NCBI GenBank assembly: GCA_963514005.1
Contig: OY740814.1
Span: 12,276,001 to 12,340,000, forward strand
DNA from: Raja brachyura
Taxonomy: Eukaryota
DNA: 64,000 nucleotides
Direction: 5' to 3'
Part shown: piece by piece, positions 3,093-53,100 of the stretch
Position numbering within the stretch: the first letter of the stretch is position 1
Layout of the letters: each line of letters starts with the position of its first letter
The notes under the pieces: model-generated
What the model saw: the letters and a program-made list of their open reading frames with translations, nothing else
What the model was told of the DNA's origin: nothing
Database searches by the model: none
Position numbers and translations under genes: made by a program

Positions 3093-3607
3093 AGGGGCTG
3101 TTCCACTGCGGCAACCTAATTGGCGAGTTTAGAAGAGTTTGAATAAATGTCATGTTGAAGACTTCCTTCGACTATGTAGAAGACCTCCTTCAACTATGTT
3201 GAAGACTAGCTTCAGGAAAATTGGACTCCGAATAATGGAAGTGAAGACTACCTCCTTCGACCTCCTTTCGACTATGTTGAAGACTATCTACGCTTACCTT
3301 TGACTACTCTGGATTACCTACGACTAACACGCAGACCTACCACGACCTACTTCGACTGAACCTACGGGTAAAAAAAGTATTGTTTTTTTTTTACCATGGC
3401 AACCTTTTTTTACTCTCGGGCATTTTTCAACATGTTGAAAAATACGCTGCGACCTAGCTGAGGCCTCGAGTACGGGAGGACTACTCTCGAGCATGAAGGA
3501 GAGTTACAAAGACCTCCTAGGACCTCGTGTCAACCGTGCTGCGAGTATGAGTTGAGGGCAAAGTCGCCAGAACTCGCAGATTAGGTCGCCGCAGTGGGAC
3601 AGGCCCC
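3093..3607. mobile_element. PIF/Harbinger-like MITE
   Basis: TIRs AGGGGCTGTTCCACTGCGGCAACCTAAT / ATTAGGTCGCCGCAGTGGGACAGGCCCC; TTA on both flanks; internal TTCGACTATGTTGAAGAC subrepeats. Confidence 0.8.
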
Positions 3608-4602
3608 TTACCTTTGAATAAGTCAAGTCCCATTTCAGGGTCGTGAACGAATATTTCTGGCTAAAACTCAGTAATAAGGAGTAACTGAATACAATCCAGA
3701 AGGATACAACCAAATATGAAGTTTTCAAAAAAAGTGAAGTTTTCGCGATAACTAAAATTTCTTTCATTCCTTTTTACTTTTCCTGCAGTCTGGCAAAAAG
3801 CAATATCGTTTTTTGCGTTCCATGGTCCATTTCATAGATTAATGCTAAATTTGTTTAAATTGAGGATGAGGAAGTATTGTATGTAATTTGTATGCATATT
3901 GCAAAGTACTGTTATGCTTTGTATACTTCATGTTGGTCAAATTGGGTTTTTTTTCTTTGTAAATGCAGAATAGCTTTGGCTTGACCTGCTCGAATTACCC
4001 ACTGTAATAGTCATCTGTTAATGTTCTAATTCAGAGTGTTTGTTGTGAATGTGGAAAGAAGTATCTCATTCCTCATTGAAATCTTATATTGATTTCTGTG
4101 CCGTACATCTCGTTCAACAGCTGCTGTTCTGGAGCATGTGAGCAAACCCTGTAATGGATAGATGAATCTACCCACGGTCCTTTCACAGTGGCAGTGTAAA
4201 ATGCTGCTACATATGGACAACCTTAACTGATTGTAAATCTGATTAGTATTGGCTAGTTCTTGGCTTTCATCTCACAGGAAGCTAATTGTGTTATATAAGG
4301 GAATCTGACAAGAGACTTGTTTAAGCAATAGTGCTTCAGTGGCATTGTGCTAAGACAAAAGCAAGCTGCATTTTACATTCACAGTAAAATCGGGTGCATT
4401 AGCAACCCTAAAAGTGTAAAACGCCATTAAGTTTCCTCCATAAATTTTCTGTTAAAATAAACATTTTTTTTTAAATGACAGATTTGGTTTTCAACTTTGA
4501 TTCCGGCAAGTTCAACTTTGAATTGGCGAATATATTTCTGACATATTCATCTTGCACTGAGCTTTCTTGTCATTTTGCTGAACCCAACTATGACTACTAA
4601 GA

Positions 4603-4751
4603 GGGTTACACAAAAAGCTGGAGAAACTCAGCGGGTGCAGCAGCATCTAAGGAGTGAAGGAGATAGGCGACGTTTCGGGTCGAGACCCTTCTTCAGACCC
4701 TTCTTCTTGTGTAACCCTCGATTCTCCAGCATCTGCAGTTCCTTCTTTAAC
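4603..4751. mobile_element. Fold-back Penelope tail-only insertion
   Basis: 16-bp TSD ACTATGACTACTAAGA at 4587-4602 and 4752-4767; reverse tail followed by the forward tail end. Confidence 0.82.
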
Positions 4752-4784
4752 ACTATGACTACTAAGATGTATTTTGAATTGATT

Positions 4785-5272
4785 GGTAGGAAAGAACTGC
4801 AGATGCTGGTTTAAATCAAAATGCTGGAGTAACTCAACGGGAGAGGAAGCATCTTTGGAGGGAAGGAATGGGTGACGTTTCGGGTCGAGACCCTTCAGAC
4901 TGATGTCGTGAGTGGGCGGGGCAGAAATAGAATGTAGTCGGAAACTGTAAGACTGGTGGGAGAACTGGGAAGGGGGAGGGGATGGGGAGAGGGAAAGCAG
5001 GAAGAGAAGGGGTGGGGGGGGGGGGGAGAAGAGAGTTAAAGTGCTGAGCAACCGGGAGATCAGGCAGATTAAGGCAGACTGAGCGGAGGTGTTCAGCAAA
5101 ACGAGCGCCAAGCCTGCACTTGGTCTCGCCAATGTACAGGAGTTGACACCTGGAACATCGGATTTAGTAGATGAGGTTGGAAGAGGTGCGAGTGAACCCC
5201 TGCCTCACCTGGAAAGACTGTCGGGGTCCTTGGATGGGTCGAGGGGGGAGGTAAATGGACAGGTGTTGCATT
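4785..5272 (-). mobile_element. Penelope-like 3' fragment (GIY-YIG remnant + tail)
   Basis: The reverse complement matches 50180-50420 (YIGET and RFAEHLRSV codons) and the tail. Confidence 0.8.
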
Positions 5273-7320: not shown

Positions 7321-10300
7321 GTATTATTTGCGGGAAATCTACAATTTCCATCAAATTGTGAAAAGCTAAAATCTGCATAATTAAAGCTACTGTAATGTAC
7401 AGTAAAACTAAAATTAACTGGCGTTCTCTGGACTGTGGGTGCAGGGCTGACTGGCCAATTGGATGTTAATTCTACTAATACACCAATGTGTTTTAATGTC
7501 ACTCTTTTGCACGGTGCACAGTGGTATTTGTAAAACTTTTGAGTGAACTTTTAGTGAGAAACAGGCTGTAAATTTTTGCTTGTTAAAATAAACAAACACT
7601 TTAGTCCCTGGGCTCCAGCTGTAATCCTGCCCATGTGTCTGACCCCCTGGTGTGTGTGTGTGTGTGTGCTGGACCCCAACCCCACCTTTGCCATGTGCTC
7701 TGTTTGTCCACCCGTCTCTGCTTGCACTCGGGACCCCGAGTTGCTGACTAGAAAAATGAAGGAACCAAATGACAAACCAACAGAATTTTTGAACAATTAG
7801 ACTGGAGTAACATAATTTGAATATAATAATTATACTACTTCTGCGCAATTTTGCTTTTGTTTCAATTGCAGTTTCGTTTTTTAGTTTAGTGATACAGGCC
7901 CTTCGGCCCACCGTGTCCGCACCGACCTGCAACCCCCGCACATTAACACTATCCTTATACACACTAGGGACAATTTACACTTGTACCAAGCCAATCAACC
8001 TACAAACCTGTACGTCTTTGCAGTGTGGGCGGAAACTGAAGATTCTCTGAGAAAACCCATGTGGTCACAGGAAGAAAGTACAAACTGCATACAGTCAGCA
8101 CCCATAGCCTGGTTCAAACCCGGGTCTCTGCCGCTACAAGCACTGTAAGGCAGCACCTCTACCGCTGAGCCACCATGCTGCCATTTCTATTGTTAATAAA
8201 ATGAAATTTTGCTCAGTAGCCTGAATCATTGCCATTGTCATTACATTGTACTGTTGTCGTGTAAATCTGCATGTTCAGTGACTTGTTTTAGAAGACTAAA
8301 TTCCTCTTCTCAGGATAACTGTGCTGCCGACAGGAGTCCTTCAGATCTATGGTGTTGATAAACAACACACCGGACAGTATCGTTGTGTAGCGACCAACAT
8401 CGCAAATAGGCGGAGAAGTGCGGAAGCCATTTTAACAGTTGTTCCAGGTAAATGATTGAGATGTCTTTCTTCCAACATAGTTTCCAGTAATTGGTTCCCA
8501 TTAGATTTCCCGTTGAACTTTTTATATCTGAAGATAATTGTTCCATCTTTCTCTAAGTCTGCATGTGCATTATGTGCCAGGCAGCGATTCAATAGATGAG
8601 TGCAAGTTATGTTTAACCATAGATGTGTTAAGAATATGGCAGTGGGACTCATCAGCATAGCCTTGGCCCGCTAATGCCAAACACATTCAAGATGTCATTG
8701 GTTTTCAGTCAAATTTCCAAAACTATGGACAATTATGCTTTTACTGAAATAGGTGGAATGTTGTGTTTAAGGTGGAATTGGCTCCCTCTCTGATTTGGAA
8801 GAAAATAGTGCTTAGAATCTGCACAAGAGTTTTTTTCACACAATTAAAGTGACCAATTTTCCATAGCTATGATCATATTGCCAATGGGGCTACCCGATTT
8901 ATTGTTCCAGTTCAAGTTGGTACTTGAATTGTGATAATGGTACTTGCTGTTAACACTTTAAAAAAAATCATTTGGGGTTCCATTATATTATAAGGAAAAA
9001 GGAAGACGTTTTATGTAGGATCACTCATGGTACTTGATTTGATTGGATCCAATGGTTCTTTTGCCATTTCCTGGGGATCTTGATGCTACTTGGTAATTTT
9101 CATGAATTAGTGGTTGTTTAAATATATATATATCTCCTTAACACCTATTTCAATTTTAACAAGTTTTTTTTCTAACTTTGCTTTGGTGGGGTTTGGAATT
9201 CTATGGGAAATATCTATGACTGCCATTGATCATTTATCACTGATTTGTCACTGACAGCATGGGAGCCCAAGTCATTGCAGAAACCAGTGATAATTGCAGG
9301 TCCCCAAAATATCACTGTGCCTGTACATCAAACAGCAATGCTGGAATGTGTTGCCATTGGTTCGCCCAAGCCCCTCGTGTCCTGGAGTCGTTTTGGTGAG
9401 TTTCCATTTCCTGTCTTTCTATCGATTGATTGATACTTTATTGTCACATATTCTCAGTACAGTAAATGTTTTGCATACAACACACAAGGATGCAAAGAGT
9501 TGCTATGTATAGGGTGCTGACAAAGTCACAAAGGTATTCAGTATAGTCCCAATGGTTCCTCTTCCATCTCCACGCTAGGTCCCACTCTATTCTCGGCGCC
9601 TCCCCATGCCGGGGCCCTCTTTGTTCTGTTCCTTTCGCTGCCAATATTTAAAAATCATAACACAATGGTTAAATTAGTTTGGAGTGCTGTGGGACACAAG
9701 AGACTACATTGGTCGTAAGGTCATAAGGAATAGGAGTAGAATGAGGCCATTTGACCCAACAAGTCAACTCCGCCATTGAATCATGGCTGATCTATCTCTC
9801 CCTCCTTCTCCCCATAACCCCTGACACCTGTACTAATCACGAACAAGAGCAAGATTGCTGGGATCTTGTGTAAAAAAACACGGTGCAACACAGCGGGTCA
9901 GGCGGCATCTGTGGAAGGAAATGGACAGATGATTCGGGTTTGAAAAAGAGTCCTGACCTAAAATATCGTCTAGCTATTTCTCTCTACAGATGCTGCTTGA
10001 CCCACTGAGTTCCTCCATTGGTTTGTTTTAATTTTTTGCCTAAAATATTGTGATTCATGTGACCATGAATCAATATTTAACAGGCAATAATATTAAAAGA
10101 TGCTTTATTTTCCATGCTGATCACTTTAAACACCCAATGAGTTGCAAATCTGTGGAATTCACTGCCATAGAAGGCAGTGGAAACCAATTCAATGGATGTT
10201 TTCAAGAGAGTTAGATTTAGCTCTTGGGGCTAAAGGAATCCGGGGATATGGGGGAAAGAGCAGGAATGGGGGTACTCATTTTAGATCAGCCATAATCATA

Positions 10301-13300
10301 TTGATTGGTGGTGCTGGCTCGAAGGGCTGAATGGCCTACTCCTGCACCTATTTTCTATGTTTCTAAATGTGTTTAACATTTACTTCGTCATTGCTATTAT
10401 AGTTTGATTTCCATCCAAATTATCAAATTTTAATGGTTCGTGCATTTAAATTTCCAAACAGATCACAGGTCTATTGATGTCTTCAATACTCGTGTTCTGG
10501 GGAACGGGAATCTGATGATATCGGATGTGAAGGTTCAACATGCTGGAATATATGTGTGTCGGGCCACCACACCTGGCACACGCAACTACACTGTTGCAAC
10601 AGCTATGCTTACAGTGCTGGGTAAGATAACAAACACACCATGATAAAGATTCTAGTTTTACGTAAATGAATTTGTGTGGTTTTTTTTTTAAAGGTGCTTA
10701 CCACTGTTCTTTTGAACGAACTTAACAATATAAGTATGCTCATAATTTAAATAAGTTAAAAATTATACAATGTTTATCCTCTATATATAACAGCATTGAA
10801 CCAGTCTTTCAGAAATATCCCTTTATGTGCAGAGAATTGGGTTGGCGTCACCATTGATTTATGGATAAACAGGAAAATTGAGTCAGAATGTCATGAAGAA
10901 CAGTCAATTAATATTTTTGGTGTGATTGGTTGAGGGAGGGGTATTGGCCTGGGAAAGCCCCCTACTTCACTTCAGATAGTGTCATACATCCATTAGAGAA
11001 ACTGAAGAGAGAGTGCTTTGACTGTACAGTACTCCCTTTAGTACTGCACAAATGCTTTGCTCTAGATTATGTGCTCAGTCTCAGAAATGAGGGCACAGCC
11101 ATCCAAGCCAAGTTGACAGGAGTGGTATTTTGTTTACTGTTATTTACAAAAAGAGCAAAGCTTTTTAAAAGGTAATGAAATGGAGCTGGTATCCATGAAA
11201 GAATGTGGACGAACACAGTGGACATTCCATAAGGGACTGGTGAATAGTGGGATGATAACTAACTGAAGCTACTGAATTACCTTGGTTTGTGTGAAAGGCT
11301 TTGGTAGATAATGAAAAGAAAACACGAAACCTATATTGAAACAAAACACCAGAATCTTGTTCATTAGCATTGTCCTTGATACATGTTTAGCCACTCATGT
11401 GTTCCCTTTTGTTTCTTTTTGATCCATTTGTGGTTCTGATTTGGATGTGAAAGATAAGGTGTCTAGAGGCAATTTATAGTTTTTTTTTAACACATTTTAT
11501 TTGTTAGTGAACATTATCAAAATGAAGAATGCTACTACTGTGCAAGATGAAACGCTTATCTAATTTGGGCGCAAGGTAACAGCATGAAAAACGTCAGTGT
11601 GGTTTAGCATAGTTAGTTACACAATAATGATTAGTTACACAATAATGACCAGTCTGAAGAAGGCGACGTTTCGGGTCGAGACCCTATCTCCTTCGCCCCT
11701 TAGATGCTGCTGCACCCGCTGAGTTTCTCCAGCTTTTTGTGTAACCCAATGATCAGGTGGGAATGGTTTGAGCTTCTACAAAAGGACCAAACTTGCTATT
11801 CTGAAGCCCCCTCCATTTTAAAAAAAAAAGTCACACTGCTTTTTCTTGCTACTTTTACCTTTTGCCTGTGTCAGTTCAGCACTCCCCATCACCCCCCCCC
11901 AAAAAAAATGTGTATTTTTTGAGTGAGACACGCGACACTTTTTCCAGAGCAAAGGAAAGGTCTCAAAGATGTTTTCCATGTTGTTTGCAGCACCACCTTC
12001 CTTTGTCGAGTGGCCCGAGAGTCTGACACGCCCGCGTGCTGGTACAGCCAGGTTTATGTGTCAGGCGGAAGGTATTCCGACACCAAAAATTAGTTGGCTG
12101 AAGAACGGACAACGGATTCATTCCAATGGACGTATCAAGGTCCAGTATAGCAGGTTCGCTTTTTTGTTTTAAAAATCTTGCTAATGGAATTTTTTTTTTA
12201 AATGATGTTATTGCGTTTGAAAAATGTCTACTATTTTGTTTTTTGCCTGAAGTGTAGCTGCTTATGCAATAGTTTGGTTTGTTAAACTGCATGAACAACG
12301 GTTTAACTAGAAAATCAACTGTCTTGATTAAAAATAATCTGGGAAGTAAAAATTAAAACTCTTTTAAGCCAAATTTGAGTGACAATTTTTACCAGAACAG
12401 CTTGATTTTATATATGTATATAAATATTGTGATGGTCATCTAGCACAGAAACATGCCCTTAGGCCCAATTTGTCCACACCAAGATGCCCCATCCATGCAA
12501 ATCCCATCTGCCCATGTTTGGCCCATATCCCGCTAAACATTTTGGATCCATATCCCTGTTCAAATGTCTTAAATGTTGTTATAATACCGGCCTCAACTAC
12601 CTCTTCGGGCAGCTCATTCCTAATGCCTTCCACCCCCTGAGTGGGAAAAAGTTGCCCCTCGGGTTCCCATTAAAACGTTCTCCTCTCTGTTTAAACCTAT
12701 GTCCTCTGGTTCTTGATTCTGCTACTCTGTCTAAAAAAAATCTGAGCATTCACCCATGATTTTATACACCTCTATATACGATCACCTCTCAACTTCCTGC
12801 GCTCCAATGATATAATGTCCAAACCTGCCCAACCTCTCCCTATAGCTCAAACCCTCGAGTCCTGGCAACATCCTCGTAAATATTTTCTGTACTTTTTCCA
12901 GCTTAATGACATCCTTCTATGGTAGGGTGACCTAAACTGAACATAGTGCTCCAAATGCTGCCTCACCAACATTTTGCATACGTTTATCATAACAACATTC
13001 AATACTGTGACTGAAGAAGGAGTAGGAAAATCTACCAAAAGCTTTTTTAACTATCTTATCTACATGTGATGCCTCTTTCAGGGAACTATGTATCTGCACT
13101 CCAAGATCCTACTGCTCTACAACACTCCTCGGGGTCCTGCCTTGGTTTGACCTCCCAAAATGTATCACCTCGCACTTATCTGCATTGAACTCCATTAACC
13201 ATTCCTCAGACCACCTGCCCAGCTGATCAAGATCCTGTTGTAATTTTTGATAACCATCTTCGCTATCTACGATACCACCCACTTTAGTGTCATATGCAAA

Positions 13301-28300: not shown

Positions 28301-31300
28301 CTATGAAAAGGGGAGGCAAATTGGTAGGAAATGGAGTCTTTTACTAGCTGTTTGTGTTTAAATAGTTGCTGTGCGTTAACAAGGTGTGAAAGCGTAATAA
28401 AGTTAAGAACACCTGTACAGACGTGTGCCATTTTACTATGAGACACAAACCTCTATGACGGGTTTCTGAAAGCTCAGTTCAAAAAGTATCGAGGTATGTG
28501 TTTTTCACAATTAGTTCTGGATTTTTAAAAATTATTTGAACGTAAAGTTATCGTTAATAAAAGCTAGCCAAAAGAGCAACATATTGATTATCCAGTCCTA
28601 ATAATCAATATGTTGCTCTTTTGGCTAGCTTTAAAAAAAAATCACCCTATTGAAGTGGCAACAAATAGCTTTTAAATAAAAATATTATTTTATTGAACTG
28701 AAATAATCCATGCATCAGCACTTTTATTAATTCCCATATCATTGTATTCTATCTAAAAACATTTTTGATTATTGTTGAACGTACTAGTATTTTGTGGAAT
28801 GTATAATTTTCATAGGATAATCTTGAAAATTTCACATTTAATAGTGATTGGGGGATAATGATTTGGCATAACTGTGCATGTGGTTCATGTTTTCCTCGTA
28901 CATCCCCATGGCAGAGACCTGATGGCCTGAAGTGGCTACTCTGTGCACACTTACAGAGTAGCTTTATTCTCCCGCTAATTTTCCAAGTATCCTATTCTCC
29001 TTACATTCAGCCATGATCACATTGAATGGTGGTGCAGACTTGAATGGCCAAATGGCCTCTTCCTGCACCTATTTTCTGTGTTTCTATGTTTACATTCCCA
29101 TCAGTTTAATCCCAGATTCCTCTTCTCGCCTACGGAAGAGGGATAATTTATAGCGGCCAATAAGTGAGTTCAGTATTCTGAAAAATACAAGGAATCATGG
29201 GATTTGTCAAAGGTCATTCGTGATATAGAAAAAGCGAACGGTGCTGGCTATATAAACTGTATACATTTTAATCTTCATATTTCATGCGTAAAAATATATT
29301 TAATCTGAGGAACGGGGGTTCCAGGTAATGGGAGAGCAGGGTGTAACAGCACGAGCGAGACAGAGGGCAGATTGGGAGACGGGGAGAGACTGGACTGGCG
29401 GAGAGGCATTCTCGGCAGCTGAGCTGCTACATGTATACAGACCTGCGTTTCATCCATAGTCAGGATTGATCCCGGGTCTCTGGCGCTGTTGAATTGCTAC
29501 TGGACTGTCCCCGTCCCCTCCCGAGTGTCCCATCCCTGTCCGGGGGTGGCCAGAGATGTCCGGGATGACCCTGGAATGACAGGGACACCGCTTGGAGTCA
29601 GGGTGGCCCCAGGCTTACAGCCAGCGCAGAGAAGTAGCGCTAACTCCAGCACAACTCTGCCTGTCCCACCGGGTTAACCGACAGCCCTGGACTGACGGGA
29701 CACCGGCCCGGAGCAATGGCGACCCGAGGCATCAATCCAGCGCGGAGAAGAAACGCTATAGCTCAACTCTGCTCCAACTCCTGACGAACCCGTTCCCCAA
29801 TGGGCCGGGGACCGTCAGCTTCTCCGCGTTAGAAGAAGAGGCTCTTCTTACCAAGTAAGAAGCTTTTGTCTTTCTTAATTGCTGAAAAGGCATGCATGTA
29901 TTCTGTTTATAGACAAGAGTGGCTCACTGTTAGAGCTAAAGAGAAACCATTGAAAAATCTTATCTCGGGGAGCACTAAATTTATAATGGAATGACAAGTC
30001 TTAAATACAATCTGGTATCGTAGGACCATGAGCTAAAAGGTTACGGCTAAAGAGGAACAGATAATGTTAAACATAATGTATTTGTGCCTGTGAGCCCAAA
30101 GATCTCGGGATTGCAATGTTTGTGGTGCAAATCTCTGATTGTAACCATTACCAATAATTTACCACATTAATTTAGGAGAGGTACACTTTATTCAAGATTG
30201 AAAGCTTTAATTAATTTAGCTGTGCTGTTGGTTATGAGGGTCCAGTATAAATTAAGTAGCTGTATCACTGAAATAGATTCACTCGAGGGGTGGGGGCGGG
30301 GGAACGAGAAATGGAAGGCACAGGGTTCAGAGTGAAATATGAACTCTTTTAGGCATTGAAGTGAAATCATCTGAATTTACCCTAGAATATTTTGAATTCA
30401 GTTATTCAAATCAATGATAATTTTCAAAGAATGAATTTATAAAATTATATTTATTTGTGTGTAAATTGAAGGAACATTTTTTAATGATTTAAAAAATCAT
30501 TTTATTGTCCGCAATGTTATTTTTCACATTTTTAGCGGATTAGATCTGTTTGTTGTGCCCTTTGATTTAGCATAAAAAAGTGTGTAAGATATAGTGCCGT
30601 CAAGTTGTCAACCTTACTCGAGTAAAACCACCTTTCTCTATGCTTCCTGTTATTCATTTCCTGGTCCAGAGACTTGAATACACAATCTGTGTCGACTTTA
30701 CACTGCTGGATGGGGCATCTATTGGATCTAGACCTGAGGCGGTTAGATGGTTGCATGGAGGAGGGGAATTCCCTCCATCAGCCTGTTCAATATCTATATC
30801 TTGGGCGGCACAGTGGTGCACCGGTAGAACTGCTAATTCACAGGGCCAGTGACCTGGATTCAATCCTCACCTTGGGTGCTTTCTGTGTGGAGTTTGCATG
30901 TTTACCCTGTGACTGCGTAGGTTCCCAATCAGGTGCTCCTGTTTCGTCTCATGTACCAAAATCATGCAGGTTTTGTTCACCAATTGCCGTTTGCACAGTT
31001 GTTCCTAATATGTAGGGAGCAGTTGAGAAAGTGCAATAACATAGAATTAGTGTGAACTAGACCAAGTGGGACCCATTTGGCCCCGTTCCCCCAACGCAAT
31101 ATTCCAGCAAACTGCGCAGCGCGGCTGACAGGTTCCCGCTGCGACGCGAGTCACGCAGCCGGCAAGTGGGAGCGCCACTGCAACGTTTTTAAAGTTCAAA
31201 TTGGCAATAACCTGTAAAATATAAAATGAACGTGATCGCATCTGACTCTCCCTCTTCAGTCCCCTATTATCCTCCCTCCACCCTCCACCAATCCTCCTCT

Positions 31301-32164: not shown

Positions 32165-35100
32165 TGATATTAATATTATTAATTTGCTCCGTTTCCCCCA
32201 TCCCCTGCACTATCCACTCACGCATAGCCCCCCGGTGCGTTGAGGGAGGGGGGTAGAGATTGACGGGTTGGGGGGGTTCCTAGCATCACAGGGGAGGAGG
32301 TGCAGAGAGGGAGGGGAGGCGATGAGAGAGGGAGGGGGGTGTTCGGCCCCTTTTTGAGGCAGGGGGGTGAGTGAATAACCCGGGGGGCAACCCCAGCTAA
32401 ACTCGGCGTCATCTACCCGGTCGTAGAGCAGCACCAGGCCCTGGTTCTCGTACTCATTCCGGCCCTGGCTGTAGACTGCAGCCTTCACAGAAATATAGAC
32501 ACAAGATGAGAGTTTTAGTAATATAATATAAATAATACAAATATATAATAACATATATAAGATTAGATATAGATAGGTGGATGATTAACGGACAGCATGA
32601 ACTTTGTGGGCTGAAGGACCAGGTTCCTTGTGGTATCTATACCAATGCTGGTTTACTTTTCAGAGGAAAAACTAACTCTTCCTTTACTGTTCACGGGACT
32701 TTGTCGTGCACAGATTAGCTGCTATAATTCCTAAATTACAACAGGGATAATGCTCAAAAGTTCTATGTCATTGGCTTTAAGGTGCTTGCAATTAAACAAT
32801 AGTTATGGCAGCCGTCGTCTGAGTTTGCATGGTCAAACAATAGTAGCTGTCCTTTGAAAATAATGTAAGATCTGGTATCATTGTGTCTTGTGGAGGTTTG
32901 TAGATAAATGCATCATCAAAGCCCTTTTCTTCAAAAGTGATGCCACGTGTTTGTGACAAATCCAAAGGTAACATTTGGTTAATGAAGGAACATCTCCAAA
33001 CTAATATTGTTCGAGGTTTTATCGCAGTGCAGTGAGATCAAAAAAGGCCAAAATTTATCTGATTAATTATCAGTCAAAATGCACAATTTTGTTTGAATAA
33101 ATGAAAGATAAGACCTGCAGATGAGCAAGTAATGATATAAGTAAATATTAGAATGATTTGTAAACATGGTTAATGGCTTGCCATATTTATCTTTTGTAAA
33201 TGATTAGTTCAATGCACTTTTCTTTGAAGTGACTTAAATGCCAGTTGGCTAATGTATGTTAATGCCCTTCAAGTACTCGTGTTATTCTAAACCTCCAGTG
33301 ATCGCCCGCATTTTTGCATGTCACTTTATGAACGAAAGTGAATAGTTAACGTCAGTAAATAGATGTGGACATAATCAGAAAATTGTAGAGATAGTTTTGG
33401 TGAAGAAACTAATCCTCTTTGCATCTTTAAAGTACACGTGTGCAAATTCCTGTAAGATTCTCGCGAAAACTGTTTGTAATGCACCCATTCTAGATAATCA
33501 GAAGAAAGAAATGGTTTCTGCAATTATACAATCGTCTGTAATGATTTGCACTTTGTAGATCCCACTTCTCCGTTCTGTTCTTGTACTCTTTTTGAAAGAC
33601 CAGACATAAGAAACAAAACACTGCTGCTTTGGACTATTTGGAGTAGGATTTCACCCACTCCTATCAGTGGTGGTGGTCACATCTGCCCTTTGTCGTCCCT
33701 TCCAGAATTTTTTTCCATTGGAGTCGAATTTTGGAAGTAAGGTGCGACTTGCATTTGCTAATATATCATACATTTAGCGTGATGCAATAGTGGCTCTATT
33801 AGCAATTCAGGGAGCTTTTTATAAACCTGGAACCTGTTGATACATATATTCAAAGCTATTGTCAATGCTAAGACACAAAATGCTAGAGTTAAGGGCCTGT
33901 CCCACTTTCACGACCTAATTCACAACCTCTGCAGAGTTTGACCGTGACTCATACTCGCAGCATGGTCGTCACGAGGTCATAGCAGGCCGTGATGCTAGTC
34001 GTAGGTACTCGTGGCATCAAGTAGGTCGGGGCGTTTTTACTAGCCTGATGAAAAATGTCCATGAGTAAAAAAAGGTTGTGAATTAGGTCGTGAAAGTGGG
34101 ACAGGCCCTTAACTCAGCAGAACAAGCAGCAACTCTGGTTAGAAGGATTAGTTGATGTTTCAGGTCGAGGCAGCAACTCTGGATAGAAGGAATGGGTGAC
34201 ATTTTGAGCCTCAACCCGAAACGTCACCCATTCCTTCTATCCTGAGATGCTGACTGTCCCACTGAGTTACTCCAGCATTTTGTGTCTATCTTCGATGTAA
34301 ATACACATCTGCAGTTCCTTCCGACCCATATTGTCAAAGCTTCATAAATTAGTAATTTATGCTGAGAAATATTATATAGGACTACTTCAAAGATATTGTG
34401 AACAACTTTAAAATTGTTTTTGATCATTGCTCATGATTGAGAGGTCGTGTAAATGTGAAGCTTGAACTACTATAATTTATCTTCAGTTAATGAAATTGAA
34501 AGGCCAGTTATTGATCATTGAAAGAAGTTCCCCGTTTCAAATTGTCCGTTAAGGCACTGCTAAGTTCAAGGAGCAAAACTTGAGTGGGTGCTTTAGCTGG
34601 AGCAGCTTTAGTGGGAAAAGATTTTTACATTCTACCCTGTTTATCACTCTCATTTTGTATATCTTTATCAGGTCATCCCTCAGCCTCCTCCATTCCAGGA
34701 TAAACAAAACCCATTCTATCCAATTTCTCTCTTGCGTAATAACATCCTTCCAATGCAAAACTTCTCTTCAATTAATTTGTTTAAAAATTTTAATGCATTT
34801 GAGTTTAGGTTAAAGATACAGCACAGAAACAGGCCCTTTGGCCCATCGAGTCTGAGCCAAGTCATCAGTCATCCCTGTGCCCTAGCACTATCCTAAACTA
34901 GGTACAATTTTACCATTTTTGCTGAATCCAAATTTCCTACAAACCCGTGTATCTTTGGAGTGTGGGTGGTAGCCGGAGCACACGGGGAACCCCACACGGT
35001 CACGGGAAGAGCGTGCAAACTCCGTGTCGACAGCACTCGTAGTCAGAATCAAACCTAAGTCTCTATTGTTGTCAGGCGGCAACTCTACCACTGAGCCTGA

Positions 35101-41100: not shown

Positions 41101-44100
41101 TAGTTTGTTGAGGATTGGAGTGTTGAGGTGAAAGGTTTGTCAATAGACGAGGGTGACTTTAAAAAAAAAAAAAAAAAAAAAATCTAAATAAATGTTTTCA
41201 CTTGGCATTAGATTTCTGTTTCTGGGGCTTTGACAGTGTAAGTTCGAGATACAGCATGAAACGTGCCCTGCAGCTCACCAATCCAGTGATCGCCGCACCC
41301 TTACACTATCCTACACACGCTAGGGACAATTTACATTTTTGCCAAGTCTATTAGCCTACAAACCTTGTACGTCTTTGGAGTGTGGGAGGAAACCAGAGAT
41401 CCTAGAGAAATCTGTAAGGCAGTAATGCTACTGCTGCACCAGTGGTTATTTGACTTCAGCATTTGAGCAGGAAGAAGGGGCCTGACGCGACACATGATCT
41501 CTCCCTGTTCTCCAGGGATGCTGAATTACTCTAGCACTTTGTCTTTTTTTCCCATGAACTAGTATCTACAGTTCATTGTTTCTACAAGAGAGGTTACATT
41601 TCTGCCTGGCATTGTGTGGCCATATTGGGAGCATTACTGAAGACAAATAGGTTCAGTGTTTAGCTATGCATTGATCAGTGAATTACTGGTCAATGGCAAC
41701 CAGCTATTCAGCATTCAGTAGCTGCTGAAAAAGTCACAAAAATCGGAACCAATGGTTCAGGCACAGACATTGGGTGGGCCAGCAGTTGTGAAAACACATT
41801 TTCACACTCGTACCCGACAAAGCCTCCCGTTGGTTTCCGTTCCAGCTCCTGAAACCCCTGGTTCTTACCGACATCAGTGGGTGCCAGCCTTTCTCCACCC
41901 AAATTAGCTGCTCCCCATTTGGCAGCAGGGACAGTGAAGTGTGAGGTCAAAGAGGTCAGACCTGTTCTCTGTCCAACATTAACATATCTGAACTATCAAA
42001 CACAAGTCAATGAGTGATTATCAGTAATGGAAGCTCTGCCCAGTGTTTATGGTTTTCCCTTCTGCTCCCACTGCCTCCTCACCCCACCCCAAAAAAACTG
42101 CCCTTCGCCAAACCAAGATGCGTGTTGCGCAATTTCAGAATTCAAACTTTTGCTCTGGCTAACGTCAGGGACTTGCTGTGAAAAAAACATTAGAGGCATG
42201 CGTTTTGCATTCCTTTCAGAACCTCTCAAAGCTTCTCACAGCTAGTGAAATATTTGTTTGATGTGTGGTCATGGTTGTAGTGGAGAAAACATTGCAGCCT
42301 GCTTGTGCGTGACTTGTGCTGGGAATAAAAACTAAAGCTGGTGAATTTGTATTGCTTGCCGTATCTCTGATGGCATATTTCACACAACTAGTGTGAGGAT
42401 GAAGCAGAACCTGGATTTTTCCTTTTTAAAAAAAATGCTTGCACTTTCTCTGTCACTCCCGATCATCGAAAATATAATGTAGTGAGGTATAACCCTATAC
42501 AACAGTACTATTTTATGGCCAATAATATACTGTGTTTCATTTAATATGCTTTTTCAAGGAAATATCTGTAAGGTAAATCTTCAAGGGCAGCACAGTCGCA
42601 CAACAGTAGAACTACTGCTTGACAGCGCCAGTGACCTGAGTTTGGTGCTATCTGTACAGAGTTTGGACAATCTCCCTTTGACCACATTTTCTCCGGTTTC
42701 TCCCCCCCCCCCCCCCCCCCCCCCCCCAACACTCTAAAGATGTACAGGCTGGTAGGTTAATTGGCTTTAGTAAAATTGTCCGTAGTGCATCGGGAAGTGC
42801 TTGTGTACGGGGTGATCCCTAGTTGGCATGGACTCAGTGGGCCGAAGGGTCTGTTTCTGCGCTGTATGTCTAAAGTAAACAAAAGTAAAGAAATTATTAG
42901 CCAGCACATTCAGTGAATCATTTCTCCGAGTTTCTACATCTGTCGCATTTGTTCCATTAACGAGGACTTCCTCTATAATTCTCCCCTCCCCTTCCTCCCT
43001 GCACATCTGTTCTGACCCACCTTTCGCCAGATAGACACAAAAGGCTGGAGTAACTAAGCGGGCCAGACAACCTCTCCGGTGAATAGGTGATATTTCGGGT
43101 TGAGGAAGAAGGGTCTCGACCCAAAACATCACCTATCCATTCCTTTTCTCCAGAGATGCTGTCTGATCCGCTGAGTTACTCCTGCTTTTTGTGTCCATCT
43201 TCCATTTAAACCAGCATCCGCAGTTCCATCCTACACCTTTCTCCCAGCACAGTACATGCAGTTTCTTGGGCCCGCACCCCACCAGCTTTCTCATTCTGTG
43301 TTCTACCAATTACAATTTCCATCGACTCCACCATGACCGCACCACGGAAAACAAACTGTTGGAGGAACAGTAGAACCAGCACTTGGTCTCTCCCATGTAG
43401 ATGAGGCCACATTGGGAGCACTGAGTGTGGTGGAGGAGTTGCATGGGATTGTTCATCTCTACTGGAAGGATATTTAGGTCCTTGGATGATGGTGAGGGAG
43501 GAGGTGTGCGACCCGGTGTTGCCCATCCTATGGTTGCAGGGAAATATGCCATGGGGCAGGGAACGGTGGGTGGGGAGGGATGAATGGACCGTAGGGAGTG
43601 TCACATAGGGAGTAGTCCCTGCAGAGAGGGGTGGTGATGGGACAATGTGATATTGGGATCCCGATGCAGACAGCAGCTTTTTTCCCCATTGTTTCCAGCT
43701 ATCTCCCACCAGCCCCCGTCTCAAATCTACAAATCTTCCCTCCCCCACCTGGCACCATCAGTCCCCACATCGGCTGATTCTGCCTGCACCTGTCACACCC
43801 CCGTCTCACCCCTTCCTTCCATCCCTTTTTACTGACTACCGCCCCTTTGCACTGTGTCCTAATTCGGGGCCTTGAAGAACCTTACAGATATTTCCTTGAA
43901 AAAGCATATTAAATGAAACATCACCAATTCCTTCAACTCGGACACAAAGTACAAGAGTACCTCAATGGGACATATAATGCTGGAGCAAAAACACTATCTG
44001 CAGTTCCTTGTTTCTTCCTTCCCTCCCTTCAACTCCCCAGAGGCTGCCTGACCCCTGTCGTAGTTTGATCTTTGTTCTAGATTCTAATGTCTGTGGTCTC

Positions 44101-47100: not shown

Positions 47101-50100
47101 GGAGAAAGCCCACACAGGTCATGGAGAGAACACAATCTCTGTACAGACAGCACCTGTGGTTGGGATCGAACCTGGGTCTCCGCCGCTGCATTCGCTGTAA
47201 GGCAGCAACTCTACCGCTGAGCCACCATGACCGGCCTAATTGAGGACTGCAAAGATCAGCCATGATGATATTAAATGGTGGCATAGGTTTGAAGGACCTG
47301 ACGACTTGCTCCTGTCGTGTGTCCTTGTGTTCGCTGCCCAATGGATTTATGGTCAAAGATATTTTTCTGCATAAAATGTTCTACGTAGGCCAAGTGTACA
47401 GCAAAGTCCAACTACGGTACTCTGAGGTTCTGTCCCTATTCCATCCACATTTTCCCATTTATCAATTGTCCTTTACCACTGTGCAGTTTGAAATGACTTT
47501 ATAACCTTTGAGTCCTGCATCTCATTTTGGCTGCACTCTTTGACAACATGTGCCACTTATATGGGAACTGTACTTTGTTCTGACAATTGCTGTTTCACTC
47601 CCTCAAACTCTTCATTTATGTGTTTGGAATTCAAGGGCTTGGTCAAGCAAATTCAAACCTCTAACCAGGTAACTTCACCAATAAAGCTTTAGTACCATTT
47701 CACGTTTCTTTCATTTCAATGTTTGTACTCATTGAGCTGATCCAACATCACTGAAGACGATCTGTAAAGTATTCTCTGTGAAGTGAATACCAAACTGCAC
47801 ATTTCCAACTGTACTTGTTTTACTCTAACAAGCCCTTCATACTGAAACACAATACAAATTCCACTAGCTATTTGGTACTTCCCCTTAAAATAAATTTATG
47901 TTGGAGCACTTGAACCCATTGCATGTAACGTTCATTCCTTTGAAAGTGTCAGCTGTGGTATTAAAATTTAAAAAAAGAAATAAGGGGACAGAAGAACAAC
48001 TCGAGCAAGAGTTAACACAAGTTATTTCAATCTTGGTGGGGACACCAATAGTGCAGCAATAATTCTGTGGTTGTCTGTTATTTTAAGGTAAATATTTCCA
48101 TTGTTAGATGGTGCATAATAAATTATGGTCTGCAGTGGATCTCCTGATAAGTGGTGGCTCTCAGCTTTTATGGGGATTATTTAAACGCACTAGAAGTGTT
48201 CTGCGTCGGAGCCTCCTGTAGGTTATCTAGTTACAAGAAACCATTAAAACTGCAAAAGATGTGCTTTTGTTTTAGATGATCCATTAACAGCAGCAGCAAA
48301 AATAATGCTGTGAAATAGGAGCTCCACCATCCAGGGAGGAAGTGACTGGCTTTGCCAGATTTTGTTTTTATTTTTGTAGGTCTTTTCACTGATGCATTCT
48401 TAAACAATTGTTTGGAACATCTTAAAGTAGAGGATTTTCATTGAACGCTGGAATTAAAATTATAGTGAAGATGCTTCTGCTAATATTCTATTTTAACTGA
48501 ATATTATTCTTGCACATAATGATATGTTGATAGGCAATTTTGTTTTTGTGTATAACCAATCCACTTCATGTGCCAATAACAATCCTTAAATAATCCGATG
48601 ATTTGCTCTGAAAGCTAAGTACAAGTACTTTGCATTATGGAATCTATAATTTGTCAATGTAATTATTTAATCTTTTCACTAAAAGGAATTTGCACAGGCC
48701 TTCAGCTTTTCCTAACATGTGCCCTCTCTGAGACCTTTGGAGTCCATATGTCAAAAGAAAAACAAAGTTTTGTCTGCTCGAAGGCCATGTAAGAGTGAGC
48801 TGCCAAATGATGCATTCCCCAATTTTTCTTTCCTTGCACAATGGGAATGAATCTGCTCTTCTTGCCTTGTGGAAACGTGTATTGATCATTAATTATCTTA
48901 TTCACATTTTGCAAAATTGTAACTGTAAACCTTTGGAATGGGCAAATTAGAATGACAAATAGTTTCAGAAGTTACTCATTTAACACACAATGATCCGGCC
49001 TTTCCTAATTGTTCTACATCTGATTACTAATAGATATATCATAGAAATCTGTTCAAGATTACTTTGGGGGATGGAGCTGAGCCACACAGACTATATTGTT
49101 GACTTATCTTGAATGATAGTGGAGTGATGGTGTGGAGGGAGGGGTTGGCTACAATTATCTTGAGTGCCTCTGGCCAGGCAGTGACAAAACCCCATCTAGT
49201 TTTGTGCTCTAGATTGCTATCTAGTTTCACTCTACACCTCCATCCCCCACCAGGATGGTCTCAAAGCCCTCCGGTACTTCCTCGACCAGAAGAGCAACCC
49301 ATACCCATCCACTGACACCCTCCTCCGCCTAGCGGAGTTGGTCCTTACCCTAAACAACTTCTCTTTTGACTCCTCCCATTTCCTCCAAACACAAGGCGTA
49401 GCTATGGGCACACGCATGGGCCCTAGCTACGCCTGCCTCTTTGTCGGGTACGTCGAACAATCTTTGTTCTCGGCGTACCAGGGCCCCACCCCCGACCTTT
49501 ACCTCCGTTACATTGACGACTGCTTTGGTGTCACCTCCTGCACCCACGCAGAACTGACTGACTTTATCCATTTCACCACCAACTTCCATCCGGCACTCAA
49601 ATATACTTGGACCATTTCCGACATTTCCCTACCATTCCTTGACCTCACCATCTCTATTGCAGGTGACACACTCCTGACTGACATCCACTACAAACCAACT
49701 GACTCCCACAGCTACCTGGACTACTCTTCCTCCCACCCTGCTTCCTGTAAGGACTCCATCCCCTATTCCCAATTCCTCCGACTACGCCGCATCTGCTCCC
49801 AGGATGACGTGTTCCACACCAGGTCATCGCAAATGTCCTCGTTCTTCAGAGAACGGGGTTTCCCCTCCCCCACTATCGATGAGGCTCGCACCAGGGTCTC
49901 CTCCATACCCCGCAACACTGCCCTCTCTCCCCATTCCCCCACTCACAACAAGGGCCGAGTCCCCCTGGTCCTCACCTTTCACCCCACCAGCCAGCGCATA
50001 CAACAGATAGTCCTCCGCCAGTTTCGCCACCTCCAACGTGACCCCTCCACTCGCCACATCTTCCCATCTCCCCCCCTGTCTGCCTTCCGCAAAGACCGCT

Positions 50101-53100
50101 CCCTCCGCAACTCTCTCGTCAATTCTTCCCTTCCCTCCCGCTCCACTCCTTCCCCGGGCACTTTCCCTTGCAACCGCAAGAGATGCTACACTTGTCCCTT
50201 CACCTCCCCCATCCACTCCTTTCAGGGACCCAAGCAGTCATTCCAAGTCCGACAGAGGTTCACCTGCACCTCCTCCAACCTCGTCTACTGCATCCGTTGC
50301 TCCAGATGCCAGCTAATCTACATCGGTGAGACCAAGCGGAGGCTAGGCGATCGTTTCGCCGAACACCTCCGCTCGGTCCGCAATAACCAACCCGACCTCC
50401 CGGTGGCTCAGCACTTCAACTCCCCCTCCCACTCCGTATCCGACCTCTCGGTCCTGGGCCTCCTCCATGGCCAGAGTGAACAACACCGCAAGTTTGAGGA
50501 ACAACATCTCATATTCCGCTTGGGGAGTTTGCATCCTCTGGGCTTAAACATTGAATTTTCTCAATTCTGTTAACCCAGACTGCTCCCTTCCCCCCCCCCC
50601 CCCCCCACCTCTCCCTCAGCCCTCGGGCCCTGACATTCCTTCTCCATCTCCCCCCCCCCCCCCCCCCAAGTCGCACTAGCTTCTCATTTTCACACCAGAA
50701 ACAGCTTACAATGGCATGCTTCCCTTATCACCAATACTTTTTTGCATATCTTTAACTCATTGTTCTTGCTTTATCTCTCCATATCACTGTTTATATCTCT
50801 CGTTTCCCTGATCCCTGACCAGTCTGAAGAAGGGTCTCGACCCGAAACGTCGCCTATCTCCTTCGCTCCTTAGATGCTGCTGCACCCGCTGAGTTTCTCC
50901 AGCTTTTTGTGTAACCCTGCTATCTAGTGACCTCTGCTGGAAAGTTTTCATTCACTGGTATTCTTATGAACACGTTCCCTACATCTCTCTTTGCGCTGAG
51001 CTGCCAGAACAGTGTTAGAACTGCAAGACTATTGCATTTTGAAAGAGAAAGGGTAAAGTTATGCTTTGGTTGAAGAATGGAGTGCAGAAGATTTTTTTAT
51101 TACTTACATAATCCATTTCTGGCTTAATTTGTTTTACAACAGCTGTACCTAAAAAAAAACATGAACATAACCATACAATACTTGCTAAATTGATTCATTT
51201 GAATACTTGAAATATATTTGAGAAAATCGGGGCTTGGTTTTTACTGACCTCATTTGGTTAATAAGGTTGACTCTTTTGTGTTTGTGGTCACTTAATGAGA
51301 CTATTCATTTTGAATTTCCTGTAAGGTATTTTGGTAATATTGTGGTAACTTTAATTCGTACAGATTTCATTGCATGGAGCAAGAAGGCAATCAAAATGCC
51401 CAAAAATGTTGCATTGCTGTTTTAGATAAGAAAATCTTAACCCTTATAATACTGTAGAGTGATGAATTGGTTGCATTTACAAAGAGAGGCCCCCTGTGTT
51501 AAGATGCATTGTGTAAACCATTGCTGTAAGCAATATCTCTCACTGAGGAAGGGCAATTCTATGTTGACATTAGACCTTTGCTTGTCTCCATTTAATGGAA
51601 CGATGACCGATTCAGGATAACCACTCAGCAGGCCAGCAGACATTTTAAGCTACTTGACAGTATGATAAATGGTTAGTGTGGTCTTCCTCTGGCATTCAAC
51701 AGGTCAGCAGGGGTCCCATGTAGATAAGTCGTTTTGTAAAAGGATCCTTAAACCAGTTACCACGGGCTTTTATTTTGTGCTTTATTTTGTACTTTCTCCA
51801 GAAGAATGCTTACTGAAAATCATAGATAAGTGTACACAACCTTAAAAAAAAAAGTTTATTCTTAGTTTGATGTTGATTGCTGCGAATAGTAATTGGTTTT
51901 GTTTTATTTTTAAATAAGTTGGCTTTCTTCAGAATCCAAAAAGCCCTCAACAGTGTATTATGATTGGAAAAGGATTATTTACAGAAATATCTGACAGAAT
52001 ATTTCTGGGACAAACCGATTCCATCAAGACCAAAAATTCTGCCTTTTTTTGCTGCAATAAGTGGTATGTCTCATATCAGCAATGATAATGGAAGAGACAC
52101 CAGTGCTGATGTGATCACACATTGTCACATTAGCTAGCAGGCATCCATGGAGCTGCTAATAACTGACACCAATTTGTACCTTCAAATGCGGTCTTTGAAT
52201 TTGCATCCACTTATTTTTTCAATTGAATAATTTGACTGGGATTACAAATTGGATGCATAGTGAAGTTAGCATTTATGTGGAAGGGGGGAAGGAAAATGGT
52301 GGGCATTGTTTTGTAGCGGGCGCACCACTGATGATGGGATGTGTTGAGGATGCTGACAGTGAAGATGTGGAGAGTGGGTGATTGAGAATGTTACGGAGAG
52401 GAAGATGAGCAACTCACCTGCTCCATCGATGTCCGAGGTAGGGCTGGGCCTTTTAGCTAACACCTAAACGGGTCGTGTGCAAATTTCCTTGATGCACCAT
52501 CTCCCCTGGCAGTGGGAATGAGAGAAGCCATCAAGAACCCCTTGGCCAGCCCCAATTTCTTAATAGGGTTGACCCATGATGTCATCAAGTGTTTATGGGG
52601 GTGGGGGAAGGTTACTTAGATAACCAAATGTTAAACAAATGGGTCTTTCATTCAGAAAGATTACGAACCCATTGGTTTTAGTATTGTTTGAACTGTTTGA
52701 ATTGTTTTTTTTACACACTTGCATCAGCTTGAAATATTTCAAGAATCATGATATTCTTGACAAACTGTGAAGTTGATGCATTCTGCATTTACAGCAAAAA
52801 TACTGGTAAAGATAGCCCATAGCCCACAGTAACTGCCCATAGCCCACAGTAACTGCAAGTCCAAAACAATGAGGGATATTGTACACTGAATTGGGATTTA
52901 GTATCAGTAGAAGGAAATTTTCAATACTAGGACATGAAAAACATAAATCAGTAGTTGTTTGCTCTGGGAGGATGCTATTGAAATTTTATATTTTGGGTAG
53001 ACAATGCTGGAGAAACTCAGCGGGTGAGGCAGCATCTATGGAGTGAAGGAAATAGGCAACGTTTCGGGTCAAAACCCTCCTTCAGACTGTGATTGATTTA

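Follow-up and report, generated by a model that had tools for sequence, protein, structure and literature searches.

The 149-bp insert at positions 4603-4751 of the window (the whole 64,000-nt stretch of Raja brachyura DNA analysed here) is a true and recent insertion, it is not an independent family, and to judge from its sequence it appears to be an ordinary insertion of the Penelope-like element (PLE) type. It most probably arose in one event in which both nicked strands of the target primed reverse transcription, leaving a product that is likely unable to move again. The initial annotation had ranked this locus as its best candidate for an undescribed system, which it is not because the architecture is already in print: in PMC8557442 and PMC3846280, insertions of endonuclease-bearing (EN+) PLEs consist of an inverted 5'-truncated copy with a 30-40 bp tail at one end. 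The value of the insert is therefore not novelty of form but evidence on how PLEs integrate, a mechanism that PMC8557442 and PMC11167929 both call unresolved.

Anatomy of the insert and its parent family

Element positions are numbered from +1, the A five bases ahead of the UGA box of the hammerhead. The features of the insert, together with a long copy of its family in the window, are as follows.

4587..4602, plus strand: left target-site duplication (TSD), 16 bp, present as a single copy in relatives B and D
4603..4698, minus strand: antisense arm of the Penelope end module, from site 1 (+97, the tail-less 3' end) back to +2, the 5' edge of the hammerhead
4669..4696, minus strand: minimal hammerhead core of type I, including helix II and a palindromic stub of helix III; the predicted cut falls between 4669 and 4668
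4699..4706, minus strand: 8-nt duplication of +6..+13, from sequence comparison
4707..4751, plus strand: sense stub +87..+131, comprising 11 nt before site 1 and then the 34-nt tail to site 2 (48/49)
4752..4767, plus strand: right TSD, a perfect copy of the left one
49227..50917, plus strand: 5'-truncated long copy of the same family, with an 11-bp TSD and 98% identity to the unit in locus L132

The perfect 16-bp direct repeat on either side of the 149 bp was recognised in the initial annotation, as was the hammerhead-like motif, whose core we place on the minus strand; the first three letters of the right TSD are also the element's own continuation, giving microhomology at site 2. The insert had been described as consisting only of an inverted tail and a forward tail end, and both arms are indeed there, but the 8-nt duplication between them, which is likely the trace of a template jump-back, had been missed. 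The 96-nt antisense arm is 96/97 identical (99%) to window positions 50822-50918 and 95/96 identical to the full-length unit in L132.

The suggestion that related species be searched for an empty site was borne out. Among the four examined of 21 listed sequence runs, the insert is absent from the contigs of all three related organisms: in B and D one full TSD copy runs straight into the sequence of 4768-4797, and in C the empty site is 9 nt shorter and then continues directly into 4768-4797. The site is filled in organism A, which may be the source of the window DNA. An older antisense copy that bears a tail (4786-4902) starts 18 bp from the insert, and its first letters are found in B, C and D.

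The parent is a young and very abundant endonuclease-bearing Penelope-like family. A 33-mer of the insert's arm has 44,550 exact matches in the 2.7-Gb genome, and full tandem units of 3.9-4.0 kb with reverse transcriptase (RT) and GIY-YIG domains, present in three of 12 fetched stretches (L131, L132 and L141), end in the same module as the insert. The profile matches (RVT_1 at E 4e-4, GIY-YIG at E 5e-4 to 9e-4) both lie under the Pfam curated cut-offs; the RT-then-GIY-YIG order and the catalytic motifs are visible in the translation. The long copy in the window, which retains the C-terminal part of the RT, a Cys-rich linker, the GIY-YIG domain, the 3' UTR, the hammerhead and the site-1 end, is itself not autonomous, and its open reading frame carries a C-x4-C-x2-C motif at residue 324, between the RT and the endonuclease (EN). 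A Zn-finger-like Cys-rich linker between RT and EN marks Neptune and Nematis (PMC8557442), and the sequence of the linker here points to an element of that type.

Copies of the family have two fixed 3' ends, site 1 at about +97 and site 2 at about +132, and the 34-35 nt between them are the Penelope tail. Tandem or partial-tandem pLTR units are also present (576 exact read-through matches genome-wide), and read-through units start at -2..+7 in 8/30, in a walk that stopped early on divergent copies. In window 50499-50820 and in L131-L141, an acceptor-like motif closes the polypyrimidine tract upstream of +1, and the candidate ATG near +165 is overlapped by a donor-like motif.

Shared breakpoints and the question of a mini-element family

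Three further fold-backs lie in the window, none with an assigned strand.

33857..34341: older-subfamily fold-back with a 13-bp TSD (12/13) and a TTAA-flanked inverted-repeat element inside; no intact core
43018..43244: older-subfamily fold-back with an 11-bp TSD (10/11); no intact core
9882..10016: decayed older fold-back, TSD not found; no intact core

The initial annotation rightly saw that the reverse-plus-forward architecture recurs within near-perfect repeats at two of these loci (at 33857/34329 and 43018/43234), and for the degenerate copy at about 9850-10030 no TSD was located there, again as it had said. What did not hold up was the grouping of all four into one family built around a hammerhead: the sense arms of the other loci are only 86% (33870-34328), 84% (43029-43233) and 73% (9850-10030) identical to the young arm, each locus has its own centre, and a pattern check recovered an intact hammerhead core in none of the three. 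On this comparison the four loci have a common architecture and no recent common ancestor.

The fold-back at 33870-34328 owes its length to two internal additions, a 44-nt duplication and the TTAA-flanked inverted-repeat element, which occupies 33889-34112. The latter, which we take to be a Kolobok/T2-type MITE, has 43-nt perfect terminal inverted repeats, and a diverged copy of it occurs at about 3400-3611. Elsewhere in the window, a young-family copy at 11613-11756, absent from the initial annotation, has a left end lengthened by an 18-nt tandem duplication and a hammerhead disrupted by local inversion of +11..+35, and a lone near-perfect 71-bp hairpin at 28560-28630, unrelated to the Penelope end, gives a weak miRNA-type match in Rfam, far under the cut-off.

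One of the two readings offered initially was a non-autonomous ribozyme-bearing mini-element family, that is, a fold-back element of SINE/MITE-like or retrozyme-like kind whose own master copies are transcribed and mobilised in trans. Non-autonomous PLE derivatives are on record (PMC8557442; bioRxiv 10.64898/2026.07.22.740005), and short copies are indeed common. In an unselected sample, taken as 95 of the first 100 listed 33-mer matches and covering the first 3.8 Mb of one contig (C1), 71 insertions comprised 28 solo short, 18 solo long, 19 fold-back and 6 complex copies; the solo short ones are near-identical, at 85-165 bp, and leave room for a minor non-autonomous source. The fold-backs in the same sample range from 137 to 3874 bp, with a TSD in 17/19.

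The proposed comparison of breakpoints gave a divided answer. The junction of the insert is unique, occurring once among the 86 genome-wide matches to a stub pattern that allowed a gap of 0-14 nt between the arms, and no breakpoint inherited by the insert was found among them; 30 of these stubs, when examined, had 24 different junctions, a TSD in 26 and a site-1/tail pair in 27. But one exact centre is common to about 900 loci (1,723 strand matches). In a sample of 51 such loci, which amount to 50 events because L209 and L211 duplicate one insertion, the length is near-constant at about 220-230 bp and a TSD is present in 45, much as a mini-element would have it. One master copy would, however, fix the base at the centre, whereas that base, read relative to the tail, is random (T in 27, A in 22); the likeliest source of the shared breakpoints is accordingly convergence at a run-off point and at local palindromes rather than descent from a mini-master. 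Other recurrent centres sit at other local palindromes, where they appear as paired opposite-strand matches.

The haplotypes, too, are those of the long copies. The shared-centre class spans several of them and an older subfamily, and the same three haplotypes at +45..+47 occur in long (22/3/2), fold-back (13/5/2) and solo short copies (29/6/2), in a tally that skipped nine arms and drew on few informative sites per arm; within the limits of those few sites, none of the diagnostic changes among these haplotypes is private to short or fold-back copies. The copies are not tandem, and they are likely dead ends because they stop at the priming sites, without the RNA of the downstream ORF on which the anole protein depends (PMC11167929). 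With the unique junction, the random centre base, the long-copy haplotypes and the lack of a cleavage footprint (below) all against it, we regard a mini-element family as very improbable.

Two proposed priming sites and a probable run-off point

In the route that we favour, the GIY-YIG domain would nick both target strands about 12-17 nt apart, after which the two target 3' ends would prime within the element RNA, one of them at each of the two sites. Priming in a pLTR at the start of the mRNA would leave only about 100-135 nt to copy, and the cDNA would run off the 5' end of the RNA, probably the transcription start, just ahead of the hammerhead; short microhomology would then join the two cDNA ends. 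In the copy studied here, the site-1 cDNA would have run off, jumped back 8 nt and joined a tail cDNA only 45 nt long. For the anole element, two internal priming sites, the extension of both strands and a need for downstream ORF RNA have been described in vitro (PMC11167929).

The pairing of ends is strict. A site-1 arm is joined to a tail arm in 19/19 of the unselected fold-backs (p about 2e-6 against 0.5), and in the shared-centre class a tail-less end accompanies a tailed end in 49/51. A more specific proposal, whose prospects we judge to be evenly balanced, is that the enzyme acts as a coordinated pair whose two subunits prime on opposite target strands, the first at site 1 and the second at site 2, that the mRNA begins at the hammerhead's 5' edge, and that priming in the first pLTR mass-produces fixed-end, SINE-/MITE-like minis without any mini-master. 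If true, this rule would explain the partial tandems as well as the head-to-head pLTRs and the one-sided tail, and it would be testable on the more than 35,000 reaction products recorded in the Raja brachyura genome. We found no published account of strict site-1/site-2 pairing, of the run-off point or of this family in the literature searched, supplements, subscription papers and Repbase/Dfam being outside its scope.

The other reading offered initially was a hairpin or self-priming route, and here the notion that these loci are repeated products of an integration route is supported, whereas pure self-priming is a poor fit. According to this alternative (proposed in PMC3846280), one cDNA would hairpin and copy itself, the tail being added or trimmed at resolution. 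It would account for the common haplotypes of the arms within one copy (at +45, 43 shared-centre loci are concordant, 5 discordant and 3 not covered); concordant arms fit fold-back copying of one cDNA as well as they fit two primings on one RNA. It would also suit the nearly equal arm ends of long fold-backs (-1834/-1821, -986/-988), the tail arm that is the shorter one in 11 of 14 unambiguous fold-backs and never more than 2 nt longer, and junctions that favour local palindromes. Against this, the tail has no template in a site-1 cDNA, self-priming by a single route would give one centre base where T and A are equal (27:22), and the sense stub of the insert has only 11 nt besides the tail. 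Pure self-priming fits poorly because it supplies no one-sided tail and predicts a fixed centre base, and we consider it improbable; a hybrid, in which two primings are followed by fold-back of either cDNA, may have operated.

The 5' ends of the arms are concentrated at one place. Exact matches over +4..+34 number 35,267, only 9,447 of which are also exact over -5..+34, and we therefore estimate, with point changes allowed for, that ~65-73% of arms stop there; in the unselected sample 52/99 arm ends fall within -5..+6. As to a possible cap-derived G, the base before +1 is G in 54, A in 35 and T in 11 (a hand count of the first 100 listed), an enrichment, but a TSD could be placed in only 8/30 loci. 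We think it likely that the stop at +1..+4 is the 5' end of the RNA. The context of +1 fits the vertebrate initiator consensus. In Drosophila virilis Penelope the promoter lies in the pLTR (PMC2377424). An apparent second fixed 5' end was discarded as an effect of query selection (0/93 unselected arms, 0/30 duplication-class loci).

That the pile-up reflects RNA processing or a block to RT, for example splicing at the acceptor-like site or a protein bound to the hammerhead, rather than transcription start, as the chief alternative to that step would have it, seems unlikely to us, if less so than self-priming. The polypyrimidine tract and acceptor-like motif end at +2, +1..+3 resembles a 3' splice site, and an intron in D. 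virilis ends at this place, mapping to helix I (PMC4209133, PMC2377424). Yet the 93 unselected arms have no common upstream exon, the two acceptor letters are kept in 4,464 arms, at least about 27% of arms continue past the pile-up site, and the one spliced junction tested, from the donor-like site near +165 to +3, has no copy in the fetched loci. This alternative alters only the run-off step of the two-strand route and not the verdict on an independent family.

Some junctions are less tidy. Extra letters between the arms or before +1 occur in L057, L091, L100, L183 and L184, and range from short repeated pieces of the element to about 150 bp of other DNA. At L069:2041-2062 (C1, 1.5325 Mb), a site-1 end faces a tail end across about 20 bp of non-element DNA, a tail-to-tail pair that reverses the usual geometry.

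The hammerhead in the insert is an inherited passenger. Its identification rests on the motif of PMC4209133, because an Rfam scan of the window at E<=5 returned no hammerhead family (11 sub-threshold matches, mostly hairpins); by sequence and pattern check the core fits that minimal motif and shares its features, it lies in the pLTR in sense to the ORF, and its activity is predicted. The native helix I has two predicted pairs, which the 8-nt duplication lengthens to four plus an extension, and an isolated 56-nt region of the insert has a predicted hammerhead-like fold with helices I and II. Folding of the whole insert is unremarkable (z -1.74 and -0.93), its minimum-energy fold not being a hammerhead. 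The duplication class has 277 matches genome-wide, with unrelated or varied upstream sequence, and makes up under 1% of arms. Copies ending at the hammerhead cut number 317, against 313 at a control position, which is no excess; about half of both counts are point changes, with true ends in 15/30 and 13/30, respectively. At +1, by a comparable but not identical pattern, there are 4,464 ends as against the 317 at the cut. The lack of an excess of ends at the cut agrees with the anole element, in which ribozyme cleavage is dispensable and no reads ended at the cut (PMC11167929). Taken with the one-tail rule and the random centre, it favours two-strand priming over pure self-priming or a route through ribozyme cleavage and circular RNA.

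Short head-to-tail arrays of the hammerhead end were each seen once, at L133:1573-2491 (C1, 162.94 Mb), L106 and L134, with periods of 311 bp (two full units and parts), 191 bp and about 328 bp; they resemble nascent retrozyme-type tandems.

The insert among known systems

The end statistics presented here give predictions for the existing in vitro system, and they caution annotators against assuming that every palindromic or solo hammerhead repeat of fixed length with a TSD belongs to a SINE, MITE or retrozyme family. In the twin priming of L1, the second target strand primes a second cDNA, and an inverted 5' piece is joined by microhomology within one TSD. The insert is like it in its inverted piece, probable second-strand priming, microhomology and single TSD, and unlike it in lacking a poly(A) tail and in having two proposed priming sites at fixed internal positions, 35 nt apart.

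Non-LTR retrozymes (bioRxiv 10.64898/2026.07.22.740005; see also PMC7229834) are likewise non-coding, carry a type I hammerhead and derive from a PLE pLTR. They are, however, tandem, with at least two consecutive hammerhead units (bioRxiv 10.64898/2026.07.22.740005), whereas the minis are solo or inverted, each strand having at most one intact core, and the insert has one core and inverted arms. The retrozyme reading was rejected on this ground and also because copies are neither bounded by nor enriched at the cut (317 vs 313), a criterion inferred from the cleavage model.

Metazoan PLE hammerheads (PMC4209133) share with the present one the conserved core, a short helix I, the additional base ahead of helix II and the palindromic stub of helix III, and the same source notes pairs of hammerhead motifs 100-700 bp apart on opposite strands. 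The family here differs from them in its native helix I of only two predicted pairs, and the insert in having gained pairs by a chance duplication and in having a single motif, with no partner in cis for a dimer.

The in vitro work on the Anolis Poseidon PAc (PMC11167929) offers a close mechanistic parallel, in that the tail is set by two internal starts of RT, both strands of the target are cut and extended, and ribozyme cleavage is not needed. The available portions of that account mention neither a strict pairing between sites 1 and 2 across the two ends nor a hot spot of 5' run-off, and the candidate ATG of the present family comes after the tail instead of in helix II. With EN+ PLEs at large (Penelope/Poseidon, Neptune, Nematis and Naiad), as these are described in the sources cited, the insert and its family share the head-to-head arms, the one-sided 34-nt tail, the TSD, the partial tandems, a parent with RT and C-terminal GIY-YIG, and a hammerhead in the pLTR. 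They depart from them in that both arms of the insert are reduced to the end module, and in that the family has a very high copy number and 5' ends that are piled at one point rather than scattered.
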